A stretch of 32,000 nucleotides of DNA, taken from Nanobdellota archaeon. GTDB taxonomy: Archaea > Nanobdellota > Nanobdellia > Pacearchaeales > GW2011-AR1. Every line of letters starts with the position of its first letter. The first letter of the stretch is position 1. The stretch is from contig DAOWGX010000010.1 of NCBI GenBank assembly GCA_030641715.1, positions 1,819-33,818 on the forward strand, written 5' to 3'. Under the pieces are notes generated by a model. That model worked only from the letters and a program-made list of their open reading frames with translations. It was not told the origin of the DNA and did not search any database. Positions 18,961 through 32,000 of the stretch are shown one piece after another. Both the position numbers and the translations under genes were made by a program.

Positions 18961-20370
18961 ATGAAATCTCCGCGTAAACCAACAAAAACAATCTCAGGCG
19001 TAGCCCCCCTAGCTGTGATGCTCCCTCCGAGAAAATGCGACCACGGCACCTGCCTCTATTGCCCATCCCTAAACGCCCCGCAATCCTACACTCCAGAATC
19101 CCCCGCAGTCCTCCGAGCAAAACAATGCAACTACGACCCTATTAAACAAATCAAAGCCCGATTAAAAGCCTTCGAAGTAATGGGGCACCCAACAGACAAA
19201 ATCGAGCTAATCATCATGGGAGGGACATTTCTGTCTTACCCTAAAGAATTCCAATTCGATTTCATAAAAAAATGTTACGATGCACTAAACCACAAAAAAG
19301 GGTCTGCCCCAACCAATAATAAAAATAAATCTGTGAGGGTAGCAAAATCGTTATCCGAAGCCAAAAAAATAAACGAAAAAACAAAACACCGATGCACAGC
19401 ACTTTGCATAGAAACACGTCCAGACGTTTGCACCGATGAAAATATTAACGATATGCTTGAATGGGGAGCAACACGAGTCGAACTAGGGGTCCAGGCTATC
19501 GACGATGAAATCTATAAAAAAGTAAACAGATGCCACACCGTTCAAGATGTAATCGACGCAACAGCAAGACTAAAAAAAGCAGGATTCAAAATCGGTTACC
19601 ACTTAATGCCCGGTATACCAGGTTCTAACCCAAAAAAAGATATCAAGATGTTTAAAAAAATATTCTCTTCAAAAAATTTCAAACCAGACCAAATAAAAAT
19701 CTACCCTTGCCAAGTTCTGAAAGGAGCAGGAATCGAAAACTTATACTATGGCGGAGAATACATCCCCTACACAAAACAACAAGCTACAAAAATCATAATC
19801 CAGATGTTAAAACTAACTCCGCGATACTGCCGAATCATGCGAATCATGCGGGAAATCCCTCCGAACTACCTCGTTGCCGGAATCAAAAACATCGATCTCA
19901 GAAAAGACATCGAAGAAAAAATCAGGACTAAAAAGATAAAAGTTGACGAAATAAGATTCAGAGAAATTGGTTTTGCACTAAGAGATAAAAGAAAAATTAA
20001 TTCAGAATTAAAACTCAAAATAACAAAATATAAAGCATCCAAAGGAACCGAATTCTTCATTGAAGCAATCAACAAAGACAACATCCTCTTCGGACTTCTT
20101 CGTCTTCGCCTCGACAAAAAAATAGCAACAGTTAGAGAACTTCACATTTACGGCCCAACCTTAAAACTAAACGAAAAAGCAAACAACGCATGGCAACATA
20201 AAGGCTTAGGAAAATTACTAATACAAGAAGCAGAAAAAATTGTAAAGAAGAAAAGTTACAAAAAAATCCGAGTAATCTCGGGGATTGGCGTAAGAGAATA
20301 CTATAAAAAACTAGGCTATAAATTAGATGAAAAGAAAATCTACGTCGAGAAATACTTATCTTTAATATAA
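18961..20370 (+). CDS. elp3: Elp3-type radical SAM / GNAT tRNA-modification enzyme
   Basis: SGVAPLAVML..CDHGTCLYCP radical-SAM cluster motif, IIMGGTF, ETRPD, and a C-terminal GNAT domain (VRELHIYG...QHKGLGKLL). An ATTTAAAC box lies 24.5 nt upstream. The gene contains repeat copy C, and its 3' end is duplicated at 21297-21338. Confidence 0.9.
   Translation: MKSPRKPTKTISGVAPLAVMLPPRKCDHGTCLYCPSLNAPQSYTPESPAVLRAKQCNYDPIKQIKARLKAFEVMGHPTDKIELIIMGGTFLSYPKEFQFDFIKKCYDALNHKKGSAPTNNKNKSVRVAKSLSEAKKINEKTKHRCTALCIETRPDVCTDENINDMLEWGATRVELGVQAIDDEIYKKVNRCHTVQDVIDATARLKKAGFKIGYHLMPGIPGSNPKKDIKMFKKIFSSKNFKPDQIKIYPCQVLKGAGIENLYYGGEYIPYTKQQATKIIIQMLKLTPRYCRIMRIMREIPPNYLVAGIKNIDLRKDIEEKIRTKKIKVDEIRFREIGFALRDKRKINSELKLKITKYKASKGTEFFIEAINKDNILFGLLRLRLDKKIATVRELHIYGPTLKLNEKANNAWQHKGLGKLLIQEAEKIVKKKSYKKIRVISGIGVREYYKKLGYKLDEKKIYVEKYLSLI
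19306..19339 (+). repeat. Bipartite repeat copy C (GCCCCAACC-N17-TGTGAGGG) inside elp3
   Basis: The G of GCCCC is at codon position 1, a different frame from copies A and B. It encodes part of GSAPTNNKNKSVRV. Confidence 0.75.
20320..20359 (+). repeat. Left 40-nt direct repeat (current elp3 3' end)
   Basis: 33/40 identical to 21297-21336, with a perfect 18-nt core AAAATCTACGTCGAGAAA (20335-20352 versus 21312-21329). The offset is exactly 977 nt. Confidence 0.8.
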
Positions 20371-21248
20371 CTAACAAACTGCTTCTCATTTTTCTCAATC
20401 TGATAATAATCTAAGGCATCATAATAATTCTCCAAATCCCCTACAGGAATGTCAATCAAAGGATAACCCCGTTTCCACAAAACCCAATTCATCAAAAGTC
20501 TAGCTAACCTCGAATTTCCGTCCGCAAAAATTTGCATAGAAATTAATCTTAAATGAATTAACGAGGCAAGTTCCAATGGATGCAATTTTCGATTATTGCC
20601 TTTATACCAACAAAAAAATTCCTTAATTTCTTTTTCTAATTCATTCCACTTCGGAGGAACATAAGTCGTCCCCGCAATCTTAACATTTCGTTTCAACTCA
20701 CTCCGAAGTTTCCCGGCAATCTCATTATCTACCCCGTGCATCAAAATCCTATGCAGTTTTTTTATAAAATTCAAATCAAACACTCCTCGATACTTAGTAA
20801 TCATCATAAAACCTTCCTCATGATTCTCAATCTCCTTAGCTGTTCTCAAATTCTTGAATTCTTTCGGAATAATTCCCTCATGTAAAATAAGAAAGGTCTG
20901 TCTTAAAGTTACATCAACCCCTGAAAGCTTAGAACTATCATAGGTATACCTTATCATAAACTCCTCCAAGTTTTTTTCTCTCTCGCCCTCGCTTAATTTT
21001 CCTATCTCCCTAATATATTTTAGTTTCTTATCTTCTATTTTCTCCAACTCTTCACAAGAAAAATATTTAGTTCCCTTTTGTTTAATCTCTTCTAAAAATT
21101 CTTTCCTTATCTTTTCAAGTTCTCTCTTCGGAGGAATTGTTTTACCTATATATTTCTTTTTTTGTTTAATTCTACCACCATCCCGGATAGAATGGATTAA
21201 TACCCAATACTCTTTTCCCGAAACTTTAATTTTTCTAAGCGTCGCCAT
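20340..21248 (-). CDS. Fic-domain protein with degenerate active-site motif
   Basis: QIFADGNSRLAR aligns to HPFx(D/E)GNGRxxR with His replaced by Gln. SSKLSG lies where the inhibitory (S/T)xxxE(G/N) motif is expected, with Glu replaced by Ser. The 3' end overlaps elp3 by 31 nt. Confidence 0.75.
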   Translation of the reverse strand: MATLRKIKVSGKEYWVLIHSIRDGGRIKQKKKYIGKTIPPKRELEKIRKEFLEEIKQKGTKYFSCEELEKIEDKKLKYIREIGKLSEGEREKNLEEFMIRYTYDSSKLSGVDVTLRQTFLILHEGIIPKEFKNLRTAKEIENHEEGFMMITKYRGVFDLNFIKKLHRILMHGVDNEIAGKLRSELKRNVKIAGTTYVPPKWNELEKEIKEFFCWYKGNNRKLHPLELASLIHLRLISMQIFADGNSRLARLLMNWVLWKRGYPLIDIPVGDLENYYDALDYYQIEKNEKQFVSYIKDKYFST

Positions 21249-23303: not shown

Positions 23304-26300
23304 TTAAATAAAAACTGGATTAGAATTTCCTTGTGTCAGACTTGTAAATATGTAAAAATCGGCACTATCTACATCTGTATCTTGCCCGTCGGGAGAACGT
23401 CCTGTTGAATTCGCCCCATAAGGAACAGGCGCATCAAAAGCCCCAGTACCATAAGTAACCTCATCAATGATAAATCCATAACTATCTATTAATTTAATTG
23501 CATCCCCTCCCTGATTAAGCCTATTTGAAACATCAACCACGACGAATCCTCCGACAGCAATGGAACCACTTAAAGACTCCATTTCAGAACCACTATCATT
23601 CAATCTCCATCCACTCAAATCAACACTACTACTTCCATTATTATACAATTCAACCCAATCATTACCACTCACAGGATTAGCAACAAACTCATTTATTTTA
23701 ATAAGACTACTACAGCCACCACCGCCAGACGAATTACTCTGACCTTGCTCATGACAAATACACCCGCCACAAGAGAAACCTTCCCCACAATCCCCATCAT
23801 CTTCACAATCTTCCCCTTCCTCAACATAACCATTCCCACAAACAGACTCCTCATCATCATCCTCTGAACTATAACAACCTCTATCCTCCGAAGAATCAAC
23901 ATCCCCATCCAAATCATTATCAATCCCATCATCACACGCGAACCTTAATTCTTCTTCCGCATCCAAAATAGACTTACAATGATGCTTATTCCTATCCGTA
24001 TCTAACCAACCTAAACCATCATTACAACCCGAATCCTCACAAGGCTCGTACAAATTATCACACGCGTACGCCCCTAAATAATACGTTCCTTTGTCTCCTG
24101 TAATCCCATGCTCTGTCAAATTAACCGTATCCGCATACAATCCATTCGCCTGTTTCGTCAAAGCTATCCAACCAGTATCTTCACAAGTCCCAAAAATACA
24201 CCAGATATTCCAGAACCCTGGTGATTCACTATTTATTCTAAACATCACAGTCTCATCTGCAATAGGCGACTGACTATCCTCCACATTCAAAGAAACCGGA
24301 AACATGATTCCGTAAACTTCTTCTTCAGCAGGACTCACAACACTCATCGTCGGTCTTGTATTATCTACTATCATCGGGACTACTACACTTCCAATATTAA
24401 ACTTCTCATCCCTTGCAATAATCTTCAACAAATAATCTCCCGACTCCAATCCATCCGAAAGAGGTTTATTAATTCTACAAGAATCAAAATCTACCTTAGT
24501 TCCTTCAAGGTCGGCCACTCCAACATATCCTCCTAATTCTCCTAATCCATCAGTATAATACACCTCTGCCCAACAACCATCAAATCCAGAAGCATACTCA
24601 ATCACTTCTGCCTCGATAAACACATTATCCCCATCACCACTACTTGTTAAAGGTCCGGGCAAGTTACTACCAATAACAGAAACCAACGGACCATCATTAT
24701 CAATATTCATAGTGATCGGACTAAACCATGGATTAAGTGCAAGTTGCAAGTGATAACCGAACAACTCGTTCCCCTGATTCCCAGCCTTATCAACATAATC
24801 AATTCCCAAAAACACCGTATCAGTCATCTCAATATACCCCAGATCTCCTTCTTCAGGCAAAGCGACAGTTCCCTTACAAACACCATCCTCATATGGAACC
24901 TGTCCCAAGTAAACTACATTTGGATTAGCCCCAACTTGCTGGAAGTAAGTCCACAAATCCCTATAACATTCCTTAATCTCATCCTGGTTCATTCCCTCAA
25001 AGTCATAATCAATAGCATACAAATCACAATAATCAACTCCCGAAGCTGGACAATCGTCTTCATATCCGTAATAACACATTGAGCAACTATCCCCACCGAA
25101 ATCTACAGCAGGAGCATAAACCTGGAAAGGAACACCATCCCTATAATAATTACCAGCATGAGGGTTCAAAACCACACCCATAGGAGGCACGTTATCAACA
25201 ATAATCTCAAGACCATTAGTCTGCTCACCGACATTGCCCAACAAATCAATACCATAAACCTCAAATCTCCACCAACCGCAATCTCCACCACATTCCCTAA
25301 TCTCATCTCCATTCTTTACAACACAATAAGCATTCTCACTAGGATCCCAAACCAATCCAGGATCATCCAACCCAATAAACTGATACCATACTTCCAAAAT
25401 ACCAACACCAGCGTCGCCAGTCTCCTTCAAATCAACAACCTCAGCACAAAGCTTAATCGTATCATCACTAGTTATAGCAATCACAACCTCATCTCCAACA
25501 CTTCCACCCTTGATAATTTCTCCATCATTAACTCTAGCAAACTTTCGAGTAACATTAGGTCCCTGCGTATCCACTACATCAAGTTCACTTCTGACTGCTT
25601 CCTCATTCCCAAAATTATCAACACAATACCATTCAAGAGTATGGTTCGAGTCTTCACCGAAAGTTATAGGGTTTCCATAAACCATCCAATCACCAAACCC
25701 TTCTCCATCCAAATCATATCTCCAAAAGATTTCATCAACGCCACTTGGGTGGGGGCCAATATCCTCACAAAATAATGAGATTCCAGTTCCCTGAGTAATC
25801 CAATAATCACAAATCTCTTCTTGCGGGTTACAGTCAGGGTCAATCAAAATACTTGGCTCACCTATTTCTTTCCAGCTCTCTGGAGGAGTTAAATCAACAG
25901 CATCAAGCTCAAAAGTATGTTCTTCCTCATTCCCAAGAGCATCAACACACCAGTATTCAATCATATGATAAGATGATTCACTAAAAGTTATCGGAGATCC
26001 ATCATAAATAATATTTTCAGACCAGTCAGTCCACACTTCACCAAATTCACTATATTTCCATCTCCAGTACATAGTCACATCATTTACTGGATGCGGGTCA
26101 ACATCATTACAATCAAATGTAATTTCCGTGCTCCCATTAACTAACCATCCCTCATCATAATAAATATCTAATTGCTCAAGCAACGGTATTTTCGGCTCTC
26201 CAACAGTCTTAACAGTTTCAGGTGCCTGAGTATCCACAAAAATACACTGCCTATTAACTACTTCTGTTTTCTCAACATTATCAACACTATAATACTCAAT

Positions 26301-29300
26301 TAAGTGGCAAGAGTCTTCAGAAATATAGAATGGGTCATAATAAATATCCCAAGAACCATCAATCACTTCATCACAAACAGAATAACAATTATCATCATCA
26401 ACCTTCTCCCACCTATAATACGTTTCATACACCCCAGAATCGTGAATCTCATCACCATCATCTGCACTTAAAGTAATAGGTGTATTTTGAGTTATCCATT
26501 TTGAAGTTCCATCAGTATAAAATGGCAATCCATACGTTTTAGTCGTCACAGGTTTAGTATGGTCAACATAAAAATCAGCCTCGTTAACTAATTCCTCATT
26601 CCCAAGTCTGTCCACACAATAATACTCTAATTCGTGATGCGATTCTTCAGGGAATACAAACGGACCGCCATAATTAGTCCACGCATTCCAATTACCTTCA
26701 TCAACCCTATATCTAAACTTTATGTATTCCCAACCAACTGGATGAGGACCAAGGTCTTCACACTCTAAGATTAATTCAGTCACTCCGTCGATATAAAATT
26801 TACCCTCATTTTCATATGTAGGTCCATCAAACTCATGCTCCGACTCAGGAGGCAAAGTATCAACAACATCATATTCCATTCTTTCAACAACATTCCCTAG
26901 TGAATCTTCACACCAATAATACAATGTGTGCCAGCAATCTTCTGTATAAGTGAAAGTAATCTCATTACCATGATGCGAATTATATCCTTCTAAGGGAGCC
27001 CTTCCTCCTTCTTGATTATTCCACCAATCCCAGTACCAATAAATCGTAACATCATCAACTGGATGCGGATTTTGATCATAACAAGTCAAAGTAATCTCAG
27101 TTTTATCGGTCATATACCAACATTGGTCATCCACTATCGGACCATCACCACAAGTCGTCGTAGTAATCCCATTTACAACATTAACTTCATCACAATCAAT
27201 TCTCGGCTCACCAACCGTCTTAATTATTTCCGGCTCCGTATTATCAACCGCATCAATTTCTATTTGTTCTATTTCCGTATTTCCTAATTTATCAACACAA
27301 TAATAAACCAATTTATGACACGAATCATAAAGATCACTTATTTCTACATGACCATCATCCTCTACACCATATCTAATTGGTTCAAAACTCCAATCCGGAT
27401 CAACACATTCCTCACTCCAAAACACTTCCCAATAAAGAACTTCTCCACCAATCGGATGAGGTTCCTGATCCTGACAATCAAGAATTATTGTAGTATCTTC
27501 GGTGATATATTTGTGTATTGGACTACCATCACCACCAACCTGAGGACCCTCAATAGTCTTAGTCGTTACAGGAGCCTTCCCATCAATAACATCCAACTCC
27601 CAATAATGCTCACTCGAATAACCGCAATCATCAACCGCCCAGTATTCCACTAAGTGGTATGAGTCTCCTGTTAACGTAAATGTAATATCCTCATTAGCCA
27701 TACTATGCCCTGACGCATTTAGTTCCCAATCATTCGGGTCTTGACTTGGACCTAAATCGTTTTTGTCACTCCAATAAACATTGTAATGTATCACTACATC
27801 TCCTGCAAATTCGTGATCATCAACAAACGTTGAGTCGTCTGCAGAAAGGCGCACCTGAGTTCCTGACTTTACGAATTGACAGGGATAGATTGAGTTCAGA
27901 TTATGACCCATTGCCGAATCCCATTGACACCCAAACGAAACATCCTCAAACAGCAAAAGCTCCTTGTAAACAAGAGGCGCTTTTGTATCCTTAATAAAAG
28001 AATATCCAAAATTCTGCCCATAAACCTTACCCCAATTTTCAACAACATCCTTCCCTCTTATTTGGTTAATATAATGTGTCCCTTCTCCCAATCCATCAAA
28101 ATCACTCTGGTCTATCTGCCCACTTAAATCAGCACAATGCCACCCACCGTCATAATACTGGCCAGGAGGCGATAGAACACTCAACCAATAACCAGACCAT
28201 GGAGCAGGAACGGACATAGGAGGTATTAACATATTCAAGAAGAATTCCCCGCCTTGAATATCTGACTGAGAATCACAGATTGTCACATACAACATTGGAT
28301 TATCTCCACAAATTAAAGATTCATCCGGATCTTCAACATCATTAAGGGATACATCATAAATTAATTCCGGAGGCCACGTATCCGATTCATAATAATAACA
28401 AACACAATCCCCCCAAATACCTTGCTCATCTTGTCCTTGCATACATATTCTATTAGAACCATCTTCAAAAAATTCAACATCTCCTGCTTCAACATATTCT
28501 CTTAATTCATCTAAACCGAAACTTCCATCAGTTGGATAAATTTCAGTTCCCGTTCCAGGAGTTCCACAGTCTACAGAACCTGAATGTCTCAAAAAATATT
28601 CAGCAGTTCGAATTGGAGAACACCCATCTTCTACAGTAGCAGTAACATTAAAAACACCATTATTATACATCGGGCCTACTAACAAATCAAATATGCTTGG
28701 ACCTTCCTTATCCACAAAATCATTATAACAAACACCCTCATTATCACAAGTATCTACAGTACAACTATCACCATCATCACAGTCAGAATCAGCATCACAA
28801 ATCAAGGCATTAAATCCAACGCAATAGAAATTACCATTATTATTAGAAAGATCCTCTTTTATATAATCATAATTATCATAATTTAAAACGTCCCCATCAC
28901 AATAAAACTCAGCAGTCACATCATCCTGCAAACTATTACTAAAAGAATGATAAGCAGGATCTACTTTCTCACGAAACCAAACTGTCCCATCATCAGCATT
29001 ATATATAGTAATAGCACTACCAGAATCAAAAGAAGTCCAACCATCTGGAACTCCTAAAGCATTATCATCAGGCTTATCTCCATCAAATCTCCATTGAAAA
29101 TCCCATTCTGCTATTCTACAATTACCTGAACTAGCACCTACATAATTAGAAGCAGTGTTAAAATCAATATGAGGACCAGACTCTCCGCCCCAGTTAGGCA
29201 AATCAGACTCACTATTACAAACCACCTTATCAGCTCTAACAGTTATACATGGCTGACAATCCGGATCATCGCAATCAACAAGATCATCGCAATCATCATC

Positions 29301-29429
29301 AACATCATTGCCACAAATTTCAGAAACAGGAACACAACCATCACCAGTACCACTAACAATCCCCGTCGACAAAACACAAACAAATAACACTAAGAAAAAA
29401 ACTAAACTAGTAGATTTCGTGAATCTCAT
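23304..29429 (-). CDS. Giant secreted surface/adhesin-like protein (2041 aa) with Cys/Asp-rich repeats, six Ig-like PHP/GN modules and a C-terminal lamin-tail domain
   Basis: The single 6.1-kb ORF opens with a signal peptide. CGNDVDDDCDDLVDCDDPDC and CDDGIDNDLDGDVD are MopE/thrombospondin-3-like motifs. Six modules of roughly 115-125 aa (about 25560-27600) carry C.D..PHP, YW.W and H..EY.C.D..GNEE. The lamin-tail pattern is KINEFVANPVSGNDWVELYNNGSSSVDLSGWRL (about 23340-23705). Confidence 0.85.
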   Translation of the reverse strand: MRFTKSTSLVFFLVLFVCVLSTGIVSGTGDGCVPVSEICGNDVDDDCDDLVDCDDPDCQPCITVRADKVVCNSESDLPNWGGESGPHIDFNTASNYVGASSGNCRIAEWDFQWRFDGDKPDDNALGVPDGWTSFDSGSAITIYNADDGTVWFREKVDPAYHSFSNSLQDDVTAEFYCDGDVLNYDNYDYIKEDLSNNNGNFYCVGFNALICDADSDCDDGDSCTVDTCDNEGVCYNDFVDKEGPSIFDLLVGPMYNNGVFNVTATVEDGCSPIRTAEYFLRHSGSVDCGTPGTGTEIYPTDGSFGLDELREYVEAGDVEFFEDGSNRICMQGQDEQGIWGDCVCYYYESDTWPPELIYDVSLNDVEDPDESLICGDNPMLYVTICDSQSDIQGGEFFLNMLIPPMSVPAPWSGYWLSVLSPPGQYYDGGWHCADLSGQIDQSDFDGLGEGTHYINQIRGKDVVENWGKVYGQNFGYSFIKDTKAPLVYKELLLFEDVSFGCQWDSAMGHNLNSIYPCQFVKSGTQVRLSADDSTFVDDHEFAGDVVIHYNVYWSDKNDLGPSQDPNDWELNASGHSMANEDITFTLTGDSYHLVEYWAVDDCGYSSEHYWELDVIDGKAPVTTKTIEGPQVGGDGSPIHKYITEDTTIILDCQDQEPHPIGGEVLYWEVFWSEECVDPDWSFEPIRYGVEDDGHVEISDLYDSCHKLVYYCVDKLGNTEIEQIEIDAVDNTEPEIIKTVGEPRIDCDEVNVVNGITTTTCGDGPIVDDQCWYMTDKTEITLTCYDQNPHPVDDVTIYWYWDWWNNQEGGRAPLEGYNSHHGNEITFTYTEDCWHTLYYWCEDSLGNVVERMEYDVVDTLPPESEHEFDGPTYENEGKFYIDGVTELILECEDLGPHPVGWEYIKFRYRVDEGNWNAWTNYGGPFVFPEESHHELEYYCVDRLGNEELVNEADFYVDHTKPVTTKTYGLPFYTDGTSKWITQNTPITLSADDGDEIHDSGVYETYYRWEKVDDDNCYSVCDEVIDGSWDIYYDPFYISEDSCHLIEYYSVDNVEKTEVVNRQCIFVDTQAPETVKTVGEPKIPLLEQLDIYYDEGWLVNGSTEITFDCNDVDPHPVNDVTMYWRWKYSEFGEVWTDWSENIIYDGSPITFSESSYHMIEYWCVDALGNEEEHTFELDAVDLTPPESWKEIGEPSILIDPDCNPQEEICDYWITQGTGISLFCEDIGPHPSGVDEIFWRYDLDGEGFGDWMVYGNPITFGEDSNHTLEWYCVDNFGNEEAVRSELDVVDTQGPNVTRKFARVNDGEIIKGGSVGDEVVIAITSDDTIKLCAEVVDLKETGDAGVGILEVWYQFIGLDDPGLVWDPSENAYCVVKNGDEIRECGGDCGWWRFEVYGIDLLGNVGEQTNGLEIIVDNVPPMGVVLNPHAGNYYRDGVPFQVYAPAVDFGGDSCSMCYYGYEDDCPASGVDYCDLYAIDYDFEGMNQDEIKECYRDLWTYFQQVGANPNVVYLGQVPYEDGVCKGTVALPEEGDLGYIEMTDTVFLGIDYVDKAGNQGNELFGYHLQLALNPWFSPITMNIDNDGPLVSVIGSNLPGPLTSSGDGDNVFIEAEVIEYASGFDGCWAEVYYTDGLGELGGYVGVADLEGTKVDFDSCRINKPLSDGLESGDYLLKIIARDEKFNIGSVVVPMIVDNTRPTMSVVSPAEEEVYGIMFPVSLNVEDSQSPIADETVMFRINSESPGFWNIWCIFGTCEDTGWIALTKQANGLYADTVNLTEHGITGDKGTYYLGAYACDNLYEPCEDSGCNDGLGWLDTDRNKHHCKSILDAEEELRFACDDGIDNDLDGDVDSSEDRGCYSSEDDDEESVCGNGYVEEGEDCEDDGDCGEGFSCGGCICHEQGQSNSSGGGGCSSLIKINEFVANPVSGNDWVELYNNGSSSVDLSGWRLNDSGSEMESLSGSIAVGGFVVVDVSNRLNQGGDAIKLIDSYGFIIDEVTYGTGAFDAPVPYGANSTGRSPDGQDTDVDSADFYIFTSLTQGNSNPVFI

Positions 29430-29622: not shown

Positions 29623-29853
29623 TCAGCTTCCAGCCCTCTTCAACAAACCATACCGAACCATTCCCTCATAAGTTTTCTCCTTAACCTTCTCGACATTCGG
29701 ATTCGCATAATCTTCATTATTATCCTTAAACCAACCCCTATCATAAAGATTTTCCATAAACAATTCATCAAACCTTTCCTTCTCCTCTCCATCTAACGCA
29801 TCAATCTCTCTCATCGTATCCTCATCCACTACATCCTTAAGAGATTTTTCCAT
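29623..29853 (-). CDS. Small acidic hypothetical protein (76 aa)
   Basis: The start is moved from the GTG at 29859 to ATG 29853, 26.5 nt from the TATA-like box at 29876-29883. Confidence 0.45.
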   Translation of the reverse strand: MEKSLKDVVDEDTMREIDALDGEEKERFDELFMENLYDRGWFKDNNEDYANPNVEKVKEKTYEGMVRYGLLKRAGS

Positions 29854-29902: not shown

Positions 29903-29961
29903 ACCCAACCATAGCATGCCCCAACCTATTCTTTAATATATGTGTGAGGGCACAACAAAAC
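29903..29961 (+). repeat. 59-nt direct repeat D (contains the bipartite core GCCCCAACC-N16-TGTGAGGG)
   Basis: 57/59 identical to 31564-31622. The core is at 29918-29950. Confidence 0.85.
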
Positions 29962-30096
29962 AATTAATCCAAACTTTACAATTTTAAAAATCCTAAGCAA
30001 CAACTAACTTACTCCGTTTCGGACAAACAAAAAGCATCATTCACGAAAACAAAAAACCAACCGCCCAAAACAAAAGTAATTACAATAGTAATATTT

Positions 30097-30126
30097 AAAA
30101 ACTGCTTCTACTTATAATAAGTAGAA
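30097..30126 (-). terminator. Hairpin plus T5 downstream of the tRNA-like gene
   Basis: Perfect palindrome TTCTACTTAT-A-ATAAGTAGAA (30106-30126), followed on the minus strand by GCAG and TTTTT (30097-30101). Confidence 0.4.
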
Positions 30127-30132
30127 TATTAA

Positions 30133-30203
30133 TGGACGTGCCGGGAATATAACCCGGATTGAAACCGTTTCAGAGTATTGTACTAACATTGTACGACACG
30201 CCC
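30133..30203 (-). tRNA. Non-canonical tRNA-like gene, anticodon GAA (Phe), with a G3.U70 pair
   Basis: 71-nt cloverleaf. Acceptor stem is GGGCGTG/CACGTCC, followed by U8. D arm is GTAC-AATGTTA-GTAC. Anticodon arm is ATACT-CTGAAAC-GGTTT (U33, GAA, A37; one U.U and one G.U). Variable loop is CAAT. T arm is CCGGG-TTATATT-CCCGG (G53-C61, U54, U55, A58). Discriminator is A73 and there is no encoded CCA. It lacks G18G19 and C56. A TATA box lies 28.5 nt upstream and a hairpin with T5 lies downstream. Confidence 0.5.
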
Positions 30204-30227
30204 ATTAATATGCCTAATTTTTCAATC

Positions 30228-30235
30228 TTTATAAA
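30228..30235 (-). promoter_or_regulatory. TATA box (TTTATAAA) for the tRNA-like gene
   Basis: Box centre is about 28.5 nt upstream of predicted tRNA nucleotide 1 (30203). Confidence 0.45.
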
Positions 30236-30383
30236 CATTAAGAATTAAATCGATATTCATCCCTTACACTTTTTCGATATTCAGCGTTGATAAAAAATCG
30301 TTCATGAAACCATCAAAACTCCTCGCTCGTCCCTCGCTCCCAACTCCCCCTCCAATATCTCCCTCAAAACCCCAAGCATTACG

Positions 30384-30483
30384 TTCCTGCCCAAATACTC
30401 AAAAAAATAACTAAATTCCTGCCGAAATGATTCACTAAATTATCCTCACCGAGAATAAAAAGAAATAATCTTCCTGTCCAAAT
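30384..30483 (+). repeat. Three 13-nt direct repeats TTCCTGYCSAAAT upstream of Fic gene 2
   Basis: Copies lie at 30384-30396, 30416-30428 and 30471-30483. The last abuts the Fic2 TATA box. A separate 10-nt repeat TCGATATTCA lies at 30250-30259 and 30274-30283. Confidence 0.6.
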
Positions 30484-30519: not shown

Positions 30520-31464
30520 ATGGCATCAATTGAAGAAAGCAAGAAAGGGACGAACACCTACCTTTCCTTCGCAAAGAAACTAACTTTTATGAACAAACAG
30601 TTTCTCTATAAAAAACATATCGGAAGAAAAATCAAGAATATATCCAAAGAAGAATATATCTTAGACAATTTAAAAGAAATAGTCGAATCAGAATTTGAAT
30701 TTAGAAAAAAGTATTTAGACCAAATAAAAAACAAACTATCCCATAATAAAAACCTACCTGAAAGAATAGAAAAAAAAGCCATAGAGATAATTAATCTGCA
30801 GGAAGGTAATAAATATCCGGAAGCGATAAATTCTGATTTCTCAATTAAATTTATTTATAATTCTAATAATATTGAAGGTTCAAAATTGCCCGAAGAAGAA
30901 GTAAAAAAAATTGTTAAACTTGGAAAAACTAATTATAAAAATGAAAACGAAGCTCGAGAAGCTTTCAATTCGATTGACGCTTTTAATTATCTGGATGACT
31001 TTAATTTTAATATCCCTTCTGTTAAAAGACTCTACAACATCTTAACGAAAAATCTTATAATGGAAAACGGAAACCCCTACCCTAAAGGTTTCAAAAAAAT
31101 AAACGTGATTGTAAACAATTCTCAAACAACACCTCCTGAAAAAGTTGAAAAAGAACTCTATGAATTACTGGACTGGTACAAAAAGAACAGGGGGAAAATT
31201 CATCCGATAATTTTAGCGTTGGACTTTCATTTAAGATATGAACAAATTCATCCATTTAGAGATTGTAATGGCAGAACGGGCAGGATGATTATGAATAAAA
31301 TTTTGATGCAGAATCGATATCCCCCAATAATTGTCTACAAAGAAAATAAATCTGCCTATTTTAATTCAATAGCAAAAGCAAACGAAGGTAACAAGAAAAA
31401 ATATTACCAGTTTATGTTAGAACAGGCCGATAAAAGTTATGATTATATTCGGGAACTTTTTTGA
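30520..31464 (+). CDS. Fic-domain protein, class II-like with an intact catalytic motif
   Basis: HPFRDCNGRTGR matches HPFx(D/E)GNGRxxR except that Gly is replaced by Cys. The upstream SNNIEG fits the inhibitory (S/T)xxxE(G/N) helix motif. Confidence 0.85.
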   Translation: MASIEESKKGTNTYLSFAKKLTFMNKQFLYKKHIGRKIKNISKEEYILDNLKEIVESEFEFRKKYLDQIKNKLSHNKNLPERIEKKAIEIINLQEGNKYPEAINSDFSIKFIYNSNNIEGSKLPEEEVKKIVKLGKTNYKNENEAREAFNSIDAFNYLDDFNFNIPSVKRLYNILTKNLIMENGNPYPKGFKKINVIVNNSQTTPPEKVEKELYELLDWYKKNRGKIHPIILALDFHLRYEQIHPFRDCNGRTGRMIMNKILMQNRYPPIIVYKENKSAYFNSIAKANEGNKKKYYQFMLEQADKSYDYIRELF

Positions 31465-31563: not shown

Positions 31564-31622
31564 ACCCAACCATAGCCTGCCCCAACCTATTCTTTAATAT
31601 ATGTGTGAGGGTACAACAAAAC
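31564..31622 (+). repeat. 59-nt direct repeat E
   Basis: 57/59 identical to 29903-29961. The core is at 31579-31611. Confidence 0.85.
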
Positions 31623-31704
31623 TTATATCTCCCAACACCTCATAAAATACATAACCAAAACTTAAAAATAAAAATAAAAAAGAGGAACAAGGTCCTCATT
31701 AAAT

Positions 31705-32000
31705 TTATGTATAAAACCCAAGACCAGCTGGAGACATAGACTTATACGCGACCTCATGACCCCCTTCGCACGGATCATTCGTAAACTCTTGTATTGTCGC
31801 AAAAGCTCCCCAAATCACAGGACCAATTTCAACACCATCTACGGTATACCAAACACTTTCACTCTTGTAAGCATCTTCTGGCACCGCAACAATTTTCACA
31901 AAAGATTCATATTTACAAATTTCTCCGTCTTGTTCATATATTCCTCTCTCATGATTAGTTAACCAAGCCCCATAACAACCAGAATTCACAGGATTATTTG
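31705..32000 (-). CDS. Hypothetical protein, 5' end beyond the window
   Basis: The reading frame stays open upstream of the GTG reported at 31989, through to the window edge. No motif recognised. Confidence 0.4.
   Translation of the reverse strand, partial: NNPVNSGCYGAWLTNHERGIYEQDGEICKYESFVKIVAVPEDAYKSESVWYTVDGVEIGPVIWGAFATIQEFTNDPCEGGHEVAYKSMSPAGLGFYT

Follow-up and report, generated by a model that had tools for sequence, protein, structure and literature searches.

The stretch of DNA analysed here (the window, 32,000 nt) belongs to contig DAOWGX010000010.1 of the Nanobdellota archaeon assembly GCA_030641715.1, and it is the whole of the sequence available for the source genome. Its minus strand carries a gene for a transfer RNA (tRNA) in which the phenylalanine anticodon GAA stands on an acceptor stem of the alanine type. 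We refer to it as the GAA tRNA. The gene and the parts of its transcription unit are as follows.

30080 to 30250, minus strand: conserved 171-bp unit (promoter, tRNA, hairpin and T-run), which recurs with different flanks in another population (referred to as the second copy)
30236 to 30250, minus strand: segment upstream of the promoter, at the position of a B recognition element (BRE); its end is the upstream limit of the match to the Logan contigs of two cold-seep runs, X4 and X2
30228 to 30235, minus strand: TATA box TTTATAAA, 24 nt from nucleotide 1 of the tRNA and centred at -28.5; unchanged in the second copy
30204 to 30211, minus strand: octamer directly before +1, ATATTAAT, which can pair with A73 plus the trailer (30126-30133) and forms an inverted repeat with them; positions -7 to -1 are kept and -8 is changed in the second copy
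30133 to 30203, minus strand: tRNA gene, 71 nt, anticodon GAA at 30169-30171 (ARAGORN, Rfam and hand parse)
30201/30136 (G3.U70), 30133 (A73), 30186 (U19), 30150 (A56), 30149 (U57) and 30168 (A37), minus strand: single positions of the tRNA gene (hand parse)
30106 to 30126, minus strand: trailer hairpin with a 9-bp stem, TTCTACTTA/TAAGTAGAA, and a 3-nt loop, TTA; in the second copy a C-G pair of the stem becomes U.G and one loop base differs, with the pairing kept in RNA
30097 to 30101, minus strand: run of five T (T5), probably an archaeal terminator signal, within the unit that the second copy preserves

By two independent detectors the sequence is a tRNA gene. ARAGORN calls a tRNA-Phe(gaa) at 30132-30204 on the minus strand, the sole tRNA in the window, and the Rfam model RF00005 matches 30133-30203 (minus strand) over its full positions 1-71 with 51.9 bits, the gathering score being 29 (E = 1.5e-8). 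Canonical tRNAs of the lineage (Glu, Leu and His of related genomes) score higher with Rfam, at 59-64 bits. An earlier reading of this DNA, made from its letters without database searches (the sequence-only reading), had folded 30203-30133 into a 71-nt cloverleaf with anticodon GAA and had named these two detectors as checks; both are positive and agree with the fold, every nucleotide that it listed is present, and there is no pseudogene signature.

According to the hand parse, the acceptor stem is GGGCGUG/CACGUCC with G3.U70 and A73, followed by U8 and C9. The D stem is GUAC/GUAC and encloses a 7-nt loop, AAUGUUA (A14 A15 U16 G18 U19 U20 A21). The anticodon stem, AUACU/GGUUU, contains a U28.U42 mismatch and a U31.G39 pair and carries the loop CUGAAAC, which gives the anticodon GAA and A37; the variable loop has 4 nt (CAAU), and the T stem CCGGG/CCCGG encloses the loop UUAUAUU, which gives A56 and U57. 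CCA is not encoded by the gene. Of 21 stem pairs, 18 are Watson-Crick and two are G.U, i.e. 20 out of 21 are standard. Ten of the 13 universal tertiary nucleotides (U8, A14, G18, G19, A21, U33, G53, U54, U55, C56, R57, A58 and C61, R being a purine) are present, and the three deviating positions, U19, A56 and U57, all lie at the outer elbow, where the 19-56 change is compensated and U57 has no viral counterpart. Broken stems, a lost promoter or terminator and a lack of conservation, by which a pseudogene would be recognised, are not seen; the only weak part is the anticodon stem.

The acceptor stem was searched for in public metagenome and viral contigs with GGGCGUG-U8 and CACGUCC-A73 fixed, and with the D arm, the anticodon arm and positions 56 and 57 left free. 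An identical stem occurs in 154 public tRNA sequences, 151 of which are tRNA-Ala (anticodon UGC in 105, GGC in 23 and CGC in 23); none of the 154 is a tRNA-Phe, two are unclassifiable, and the last, from viral contig L221, joins the anticodon AUG to a body of alanine type. With 151 of 154 matches being tRNA-Ala and none tRNA-Phe, G3.U70 is therefore not the degraded G-C pair of a phenylalanine stem, and the stem as a whole is of alanine type. This bears out the earlier claim that the alanine set, G3.U70 with A73, is combined here with a phenylalanine anticodon. Compared with a tRNA-Ala proper, the gene has G3.U70 and A73, and it has GAA in place of the NGC anticodon that reads GCN codons; it joins an alanine-type acceptor stem to the anticodon of another amino acid, as a dual-identity tRNA does.

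The closest overall relative is a 71-nt tRNA-Ala(UGC) on viral contig L211, which shares C9, the 7-nt D loop and the 4-nt variable loop with the GAA tRNA. Outside the anticodon arm the two are identical at 46 of 54 positions (about 25 of 33 without the positions fixed by the search pattern), inside the arm at 4 of 17, and in the D and T loops the differences are exactly those at positions 19, 56 and 57. C56 followed by a purine at position 57 is found in all tRNAs that share the stem. We also considered the likeness of the D arms as evidence of common ancestry with the L211 tRNA and rejected it, since compact D arms of this kind are common to phage tRNAs of many different isotypes.

Alanyl-tRNA synthetase (AlaRS) reads the G3.U70 pair and not the anticodon, and classical work found G3.U70 to be sufficient for alanine acceptance by other tRNAs. 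The GAA tRNA would thus be expected to be charged by AlaRS, because this enzyme recognises G3.U70 and A73 independently of the anticodon and because G3:U70 suffices in a yeast tRNA-Pro. In that case, a tRNA-Pro given G3:U70 by a C70U change led to the insertion of alanine at proline codons (PMC5389508).

Several other viral sequences have comparable acceptor stems. The tRNA of L221 (11560-11630, plus strand) has the identical GGGCGUG/CACGUCC stem with AUG, the anticodon of a histidine codon. In L249 (1750-1821, minus strand, viral) the acceptor GGGGCUA/UAGUUCC has an in-register G3.U70 pair and the anticodon is GAA; we take its 5' strand, GGGGCUA, to be that of the E. coli tRNA-Ala stem. Two further viral tRNAs, in L243 (2171-2242, minus strand) and L251 (9316-9389, plus strand), also combine GAA with an in-register G3.U70, and the one in L251 has in addition the U28.U42 and U31.G39 pattern and the UGAAAC loop sequence of the GAA tRNA. 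Finally, the viral contigs L210 (4777-4850, plus strand) and L219 (minus strand) have the same alanine acceptor with a normal T arm, and the middle part forms neither a D arm nor an anticodon arm; these may be tRNA-like or tmRNA-like acceptor modules.

The anticodon arm is of a different quality. In a nearest-neighbour model the molecule has -19.3 to -20.6 kcal/mol with the canonical anticodon stem formed and -21.3 kcal/mol with the stem left open, so the weakness that had been noticed in the pairs U28.U42 and U31.G39 is real, in that no stability is gained by forming the stem. With regard to phenylalanine identity, the gene has both the GAA anticodon and A73, which are the main identity elements for phenylalanyl-tRNA synthetase (PheRS), and it has A rather than G at position 37 (30168). 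The tRNA-Phe of archaea and eukaryotes carries wyosine derivatives at this position, and these are derived from G37 (PMC7761594). The normal tRNAs of the lineage (Leu, His, Glu, Ser and Asp) have GG in the D loop and T loops of the form GTTCRAnTC. With A37, and without C56 and R57, the GAA tRNA does not look like an archaeal tRNA-Phe in its sequence, and among the phage tRNA-Phe genes examined none resembles it.

A reassignment of UUY codons to alanine was also considered, and it is ruled out by 14 alignments of window proteins with relatives that lack the tRNA: TTY codons are aligned with phenylalanine in 167 of 176 cases and with alanine in one. UUY accounts for 4.6% of the codons in the window, with TTT and TTC at about 2 to 1. 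The absence of the gene from syntenic relatives argues that the GAA tRNA is supernumerary.

The elbow was studied by searching viral contigs (IMG/VR) for sequences that combine the D loop AATGTTA with a T loop of the form TTA(G/T)ATT. Seventeen viral loci were found, 15 of which are full cloverleaf tRNAs with U19-A56, nearly all of them 71 nt long and most of them in tRNA arrays; they comprise Thr(GGU), Thr(UGU), Ile(GAU), Gly(UCC), Gln(CUG) and two that ARAGORN did not call. The only other matches that have T at position 57 are not tRNAs. The tRNAs concerned are located as follows.

L454 6659-6732, L455 6801-6874, L456 6184-6257, L458 738-811, L459 216-289, L466 6939-7010, L467 8157-8230 and duplicates: viral tRNAs with U19-A56, D loop AATGTTA and T loop TTAGATT

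Viral tRNAs with G19 in a D arm of this type served as comparators, and all 137 of them whose T loop could be recognised have C56. The suggestion that U19-A56 replaces G19-C56 is therefore well founded, with the same swap in 15 viral cloverleaf tRNAs and C56 in all 137 comparators. Judged from this covariation, U19-A56 is a natural alternative to G19-C56 in functional-looking tRNAs, and it looks characteristic of virus-encoded ones. We found no paper that describes this viral set. A sixteenth locus deserves to be mentioned separately: a 66-nt tRNA-like gene in a phage tRNA cluster (L422 4765-4830, minus strand; Rfam 52.6 bits, no call by ARAGORN) has perfect acceptor, D and T arms, a D arm identical to that of the GAA tRNA and U19-A56, and its anticodon arm is cut down to a 4-bp stem and a 4-nt loop (TCAG-TTAT-CTGA) with no anticodon loop.

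More stringent patterns found no further member. The exact loops of the GAA tRNA (AATGTTA, GAA, TTATATT) gave only chance, non-tRNA matches in viral contigs and no match in the genome_contigs and metagenome_contigs collections, neither of which includes the source genome, and a pattern that allowed any anticodon and required A56-U57 gave 30 viral matches at two variable-loop lengths with no tRNA among them. In canonical archaeal tRNA, C56 pairs with G19 and is 2'-O-methylated (Cm56 is a hallmark), and A57 stacks between two tertiary pairs (PMC7912444). By its sequence the GAA tRNA would escape the modifications of the canonical archaeal elbow. The recurrence of U19-A56 bears on how the elbow is recognised by RNase P, the CCA-adding enzyme, Trm56, the ribosomal L1 stalk and tRNA-targeting defence nucleases.

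Upstream of the gene, a box centred at -28.5 had been proposed, and TTTATAAA is found there. Its spacing was compared with that of tRNA genes in related DPANN loci (L017, L018, L023, L028, L031, L037, L040 and L045), wherever the upstream region was readable. In the normal tRNA genes of this set (Leu, His, Ser and Asp) a TATA-like 8-mer ends 23-24 nt before +1, and the distance in the GAA tRNA is 24 nt; AT-rich ATTAT/ATTAA motifs also occur just upstream of the normal genes of the lineage. None of the lineage tRNA genes compared encodes CCA either. At the 3' end there is a difference, as the normal tRNA genes usually have a T-run directly after the discriminator, whereas the GAA tRNA has the hairpin and a T5 run that starts 32 nt after the discriminator.

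The promoter spacing suggests that tRNA transcripts of this lineage are leaderless or nearly so, as in Nanoarchaeum equitans, where promoters stand at a fixed distance and tRNAs are leaderless. Because the TATA box of the GAA tRNA ends at -25 with the spacing typical of the lineage, transcription is expected to begin at +1 or no more than about 3 nt away from it, and it follows that most of the 8-nt "leader" half of the helix is probably not in the RNA; 30204-30211 is probably an initiator region rather than a transcribed leader. The idea that leader and trailer extend the acceptor helix thus stands in part: the complementarity is real at the DNA level, but the leader half lies mostly upstream of the expected start. 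We also rejected the helix as an RNA processing stem or bulge-helix-bulge motif, as it is continuous and without bulges and, judged from the promoter spacing, the greater part of the "leader" precedes the likely start. The appearance of an independent transcription unit, on the other hand, is upheld by the lineage-type promoter spacing and by the conservation of promoter, tRNA, hairpin and T5 as a whole in the second copy.

This second copy was found in a 274-nt (X4) and a 251-nt (X2) Logan contig, which match the window at 30080-30250 only, i.e. over a stretch that begins some 15 nt before the TATA box and ends some 17 nt beyond the T-run, and have unrelated flanks on both sides. Among the cold-seep runs, X1 contains the window form only, X4 the variant only and X2 both; there are therefore two populations. 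Seven differences were located, namely C44U in the tRNA, the change of C-G to U.G in the hairpin stem, one loop base, and positions -8, -9, -11 and -13, so the tRNA has one change in 71 nt vs 6-9 per 100 nt in the flanks. The TATA box, positions -7 to -1 and tRNA positions 27-43 are unchanged, and the three changes in the transcribed part are all structure-neutral. The promoter-tRNA-terminator unit appears to be under constraint, as would be expected of a working transcription unit. All runs with the GAA tRNA come from one cold-seep study, and none was found outside it. A further X4 contig of 86 nt matches 30126-30159, with the acceptor 3' strand and a 7-nt trailer exact and the T arm differing at four places. 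Beyond this stretch it diverges at either end, and it may represent another family member with a different anticodon arm.

The window as a whole is a piece of archaeal chromosome with a GC content of ~35%, encoding a threonyl-tRNA synthetase with an archaea-specific editing domain, tyrosyl- and tryptophanyl-tRNA synthetases, KaiC and an Elp3-like protein, which shares 84-90% identity with proteins of Candidatus Pacearchaeota and Nanoarchaeota metagenome-assembled genomes. Identical window proteins are found on contigs of several cold-seep metagenome samples; judged from these proteins, the host is a member of the Pacearchaeota/Nanoarchaeota (DPANN) from a cold seep. Synteny with the closest relatives (tblastn) holds on both sides of the tRNA, which itself lies among the following features.

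~29573 to ~32470 (past the window end at 32000), no strand: strain-specific island of ~2.9 kb, with 68 bp in its place in relative L024 (blastn against L024, L023 and L039)
29903 to 29961, plus strand: direct repeat DR_A1, 59 nt, which brackets the tRNA and the Fic gene together with DR_A2
30520 to 31464, plus strand: Fic-domain gene (PF02661), PDC-S04 in PADLOC and SoFic-like, of a large conserved DPANN family
31564 to 31622, plus strand: direct repeat DR_A2, 59 nt, 57/59 identical to DR_A1 (0 matches expected by chance)
31615 to 31671, plus strand: DR_B1, decayed duplicate of the promoter and start codon of the downstream 156-aa gene, with its partner at L001 8999-9055 (57 nt, 86% identity, self-BLAST)

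The island contains, in this order, an open reading frame (ORF) of 76 aa (29623-29853, minus strand), DR_A1, the tRNA, the Fic gene, DR_A2/DR_B1 and a 230-aa ORF. As the site is empty in L024 and is occupied by other genes in L039, the tRNA by this comparison sits in a variable, insertion-prone island. It had been supposed that the gene is borne by an element and lies in a repeat-bounded Fic segment, and the empty site and the 59-nt direct repeats (57/59 identical) agree with this. In all four cold-seep runs the Logan depth of the 59-nt repeat is 3-4 times as high as that of the sequence around it, and variant copies and other flanks occur, so it is a multicopy element in the community; an att site, a miniature inverted-repeat transposable element, a small RNA or a promoter are candidates for what it is. 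Sequence inspection, the only method applied to this point, found no convincing integron attC-like inverted repeat inside it. The DR_B1 pair brackets the 230-aa ORF, the ATG having become ATA in the upstream copy, and in L024 the promoter is single. The nested order (repeat A, cargo, repeat A/repeat B, cargo, repeat B) suggests serial insertions with long target duplications.

A link between the tRNA and the Fic gene, on the contrary, did not survive. No tRNA was found upstream of Fic orthologues (80-87% identity) in nine loci by ARAGORN and a permissive Rfam search, and these loci also lack the 59-nt repeat; a functional tRNA-Fic pair was therefore rejected, as the second copy of the tRNA, too, has other flanks and the association is conserved on neither side. 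There is no similar tRNA in 22 archaeal Elp3 loci, and BLAST to deposited phage genomes gave nothing meaningful. Both Fic genes of the window (the other one is described below) resemble defence candidates of PADLOC, and an RHH-PIN pair lies nearby.

Taking these observations together, we tentatively read the gene as an accessory, independently transcribed tRNA gene on a strain-specific island, in which an alanine-type top half with a U19-A56 elbow is joined to an unrelated and weak GAA arm, i.e. as an identity chimera. We would put the probability of this reading at roughly 0.45. Its most likely source would be a virus or another mobile element. In the mechanism that we envisage, TATA-driven transcription would start at or within about 3 nt of +1, in keeping with the spacing of the lineage, the 3' end would be trimmed before the trailer hairpin and T5, and CCA would then be added. 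AlaRS would charge the tRNA with alanine via G3.U70/A73, and PheRS may compete via G34-A35-A36 and A73. On the ribosome the tRNA would read UUY and, because UUY still means phenylalanine in this genome, the outcome would be a low-level Phe-to-Ala mistranslation, limited by the weak anticodon stem, the altered elbow and the competing normal tRNA-Phe. The weak stem and the odd elbow may keep the activity low, or decoding may not be the job of this tRNA.

A number of points weigh against the identity chimera. Constitutive Phe-to-Ala mistranslation would be expected to carry a cost: yeast with a single copy of tRNA-Ala(GAA) mistranslates and grows more slowly, and no transformants are obtained with a multicopy plasmid (PMC10543346). 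The minimum free energy fold (-23.1 kcal/mol) uses an alternative UGAAA/UUUCA hairpin that buries the anticodon, and the Rfam score is 7-12 bits under that of the normal tRNAs of the lineage. Position 57 is always G in the viral U19-A56 tRNAs (T loop UUAGAUU), and none of them has U57. The GAA tRNA was not found in related genome loci or in JGI or GTDB sequence, and none was found in RNA runs. The contrast in conservation is borderline as well, with a Fisher p of 0.047 for 1/71 vs 9/100 (10 differences) and of 0.24 for the seven located differences, and it is drawn from one low-depth contig per run.

Some of these points could be turned into other explanations. The acceptor, D and T arms have no defect, whereas formation of the anticodon stem is neutral or unfavourable in energy and another hairpin is preferred. 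The gene might on this ground specify a non-decoding tRNA-like RNA in which only the top half is selected, with GAA being incidental; the RNA could serve as an alanyl donor for a non-ribosomal reaction, or it could act as a decoy or substitute substrate for a toxin or defence enzyme that targets tRNA. The chance-level likeness of its anticodon arm to that of the closest tRNA-Ala (4/17), the 66-nt gene of L422 with nothing but a top half, and the abundance nearby of genes of defence and toxin type (two Fic genes similar to SoFic/PDC-S04, and the RHH-PIN pair) would fit in with this. We nevertheless regard it as unlikely, given that the arm keeps the standard geometry of 5 bp and 7 nt with U33 and a purine at 37, that positions 27-43 do not differ between the copies, and that no aminoacyl-transferase or tRNA-targeting enzyme is adjacent, the association with Fic not being conserved. 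The gene might also be a decaying or hitch-hiking relic of a viral tRNA, in which G3.U70, the weak anticodon stem and U57 arose by drift under AT pressure, and to this we give no better chance. Its restriction to the metagenomes of one study, its absence from related loci and from the empty-site relative, an Rfam score below that of normal lineage tRNAs, the U.U and G.U pairs of the anticodon stem and the weak conservation statistic would all be consistent with decay. Drift is harder to reconcile with 18 of 21 Watson-Crick pairs plus two G.U, with three concerted elbow changes in which 19-56 is compensated by two transversions, with a G3.U70 stem that matches 151 tRNA-Ala genes exactly, or with a promoter, hairpin and T-run that are intact and were retained in a second population while spacer and flanks diverged.

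Another explanation would be an ordinary extra tRNA-Phe, charged by PheRS only and ignored by AlaRS, that adds UUY capacity to an AT-rich genome or element; GAA and A73 are in place, UUY makes up 4.6% of the codons and mobile elements commonly carry tRNAs. A few viral tRNAs with GAA also have G3.U70, and that of L243 is the only tRNA-Phe called in the examined part of its phage array. This explanation seems distinctly improbable to us, since the identical stem belongs to tRNA-Ala in 151 of 154 cases and to tRNA-Phe in none, position 37 is A and not G (PMC7761594), G3.U70 is sufficient for alanine acceptance (PMC5389508) and no examined phage tRNA-Phe is similar. Going further than the identity chimera, one may speculate that mobile elements of DPANN and some phages carry purpose-built, alanine-bodied tRNAs with foreign anticodons (GAA here and in L249, AUG in L221) that deliberately insert alanine, e.g. 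to damage or remodel the proteome of a host or competitor, and that the U19-A56-U57 elbow tunes them or shields them from host enzymes. We consider this speculation doubtful; if it is true, the GAA tRNA would be the first natural dual-identity, mistranslating tRNA in Archaea.

To our knowledge, natural tRNAs that join one identity with another anticodon are rare and come mainly from yeasts, human variants and Streptomyces; an archaeal, island-borne case would show that such tRNAs also circulate on mobile DNA in reduced, symbiotic DPANN. In a classic experiment, G3.U70 was put into a tRNA reading phenylalanine codons, and the GAA tRNA would be a natural version of that experiment and a ready substrate for studying the competition of archaeal AlaRS and PheRS. 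What is new here is the identification of the alanine-type stem by comparison, the covariation of U19-A56, the context of the island and the second copy, and the argument from the promoter against an extended helix. The first structural reading of the GAA tRNA was largely right, and what is said of its function is deduced from the sequence only.

It is useful to compare the GAA tRNA with known systems. It shares with tRNA-Ala the pairs G1-C72, G2-C71, G3.U70 and C4-G69 as well as A73, and its acceptor stem and U8 are identical to those of 151 genes; unlike tRNA-Ala, it has GAA and not NGC, an unrelated anticodon arm (4/17) and U19-A56-U57 vs G19-C56-R57. With archaeal tRNA-Phe it has GAA, A73 and the standard size of the cloverleaf in common, while tRNA-Phe has G37 (PMC7761594) and C56 with R57 (PMC7912444), as opposed to A37, A56, U57 and an alanine-type G3.U70 acceptor here. 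The mistranslating tRNA-Ala anticodon variants (engineered in yeast, natural in humans) and the G3:U70 mutants follow the same principle, i.e. an alanine acceptor with a foreign anticodon that AlaRS ignores (PMC10543346, PMC5389508). They are, however, point variants of canonical eukaryotic tRNAs, without the remodelled elbow and the entirely different anticodon arm of the GAA tRNA, which is a stand-alone gene on an archaeal island, present in two populations and known from sequence alone. The closest natural parallel seems to be tRNA-ProX of Streptomyces and Kitasatospora (PMC10404621): these are also natural prokaryotic accessory genes in which body and anticodon come from different isoacceptor families, but they are bacterial, proline-bodied and usually located beside a dedicated ProRS isoform, whereas the GAA tRNA is archaeal, of alanine type and has no adjacent synthetase. 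Finally, the viral U19-A56 tRNAs have the same 7-nt D loop AAUGUUA and the same 19-56 swap and are nearly all 71 nt long. They differ in having G57 (UUAGAUU) vs U57, in lying mostly in arrays and in their strong anticodon arms, which match their bodies, and CCA is encoded in the tRNA-Ile genes of L455, L462 and L463 (those examined), in contrast to the GAA tRNA.

A few other features of the window and of related genomes were noted. Between the tRNA and the start of the Fic gene the motif TTT(G/C)G(G/A)CAGGAA occurs three times (30384-30395, 30416-30427 and 30471-30482, minus strand), and similar motif repeats are found upstream of Fic orthologues in relatives (L013, L017); the array looks like a set of operators for autoregulation of Fic. 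The second Fic gene (20340-21248, minus strand) is SoFic/PDC-S04-like and shares 31 nt with the 3' end of the Elp3-like gene. In L039, L024 and L023 it is missing and a GNAT gene directly follows Elp3; it is another strain-specific insertion. In two related DPANN genomes a tRNA-Ser with anticodon AGA (loop CUAGAAA) is present beside the normal tRNA-Ser(GGA) (L023 16601-16681 and L045 17657-17737, both on the minus strand); a tRNA-Ser with A34 is, as far as we know, unusual for Archaea. The gene adjoining the island (23304-29429, minus strand) encodes a protein of 2041 aa that has a lamin-tail domain at its C-terminus. Over the C-terminal ~1100 residues its identity to the closest relatives is only ~50%, compared with 75-95% for the neighbouring proteins, and it is probably a fast-evolving surface protein.

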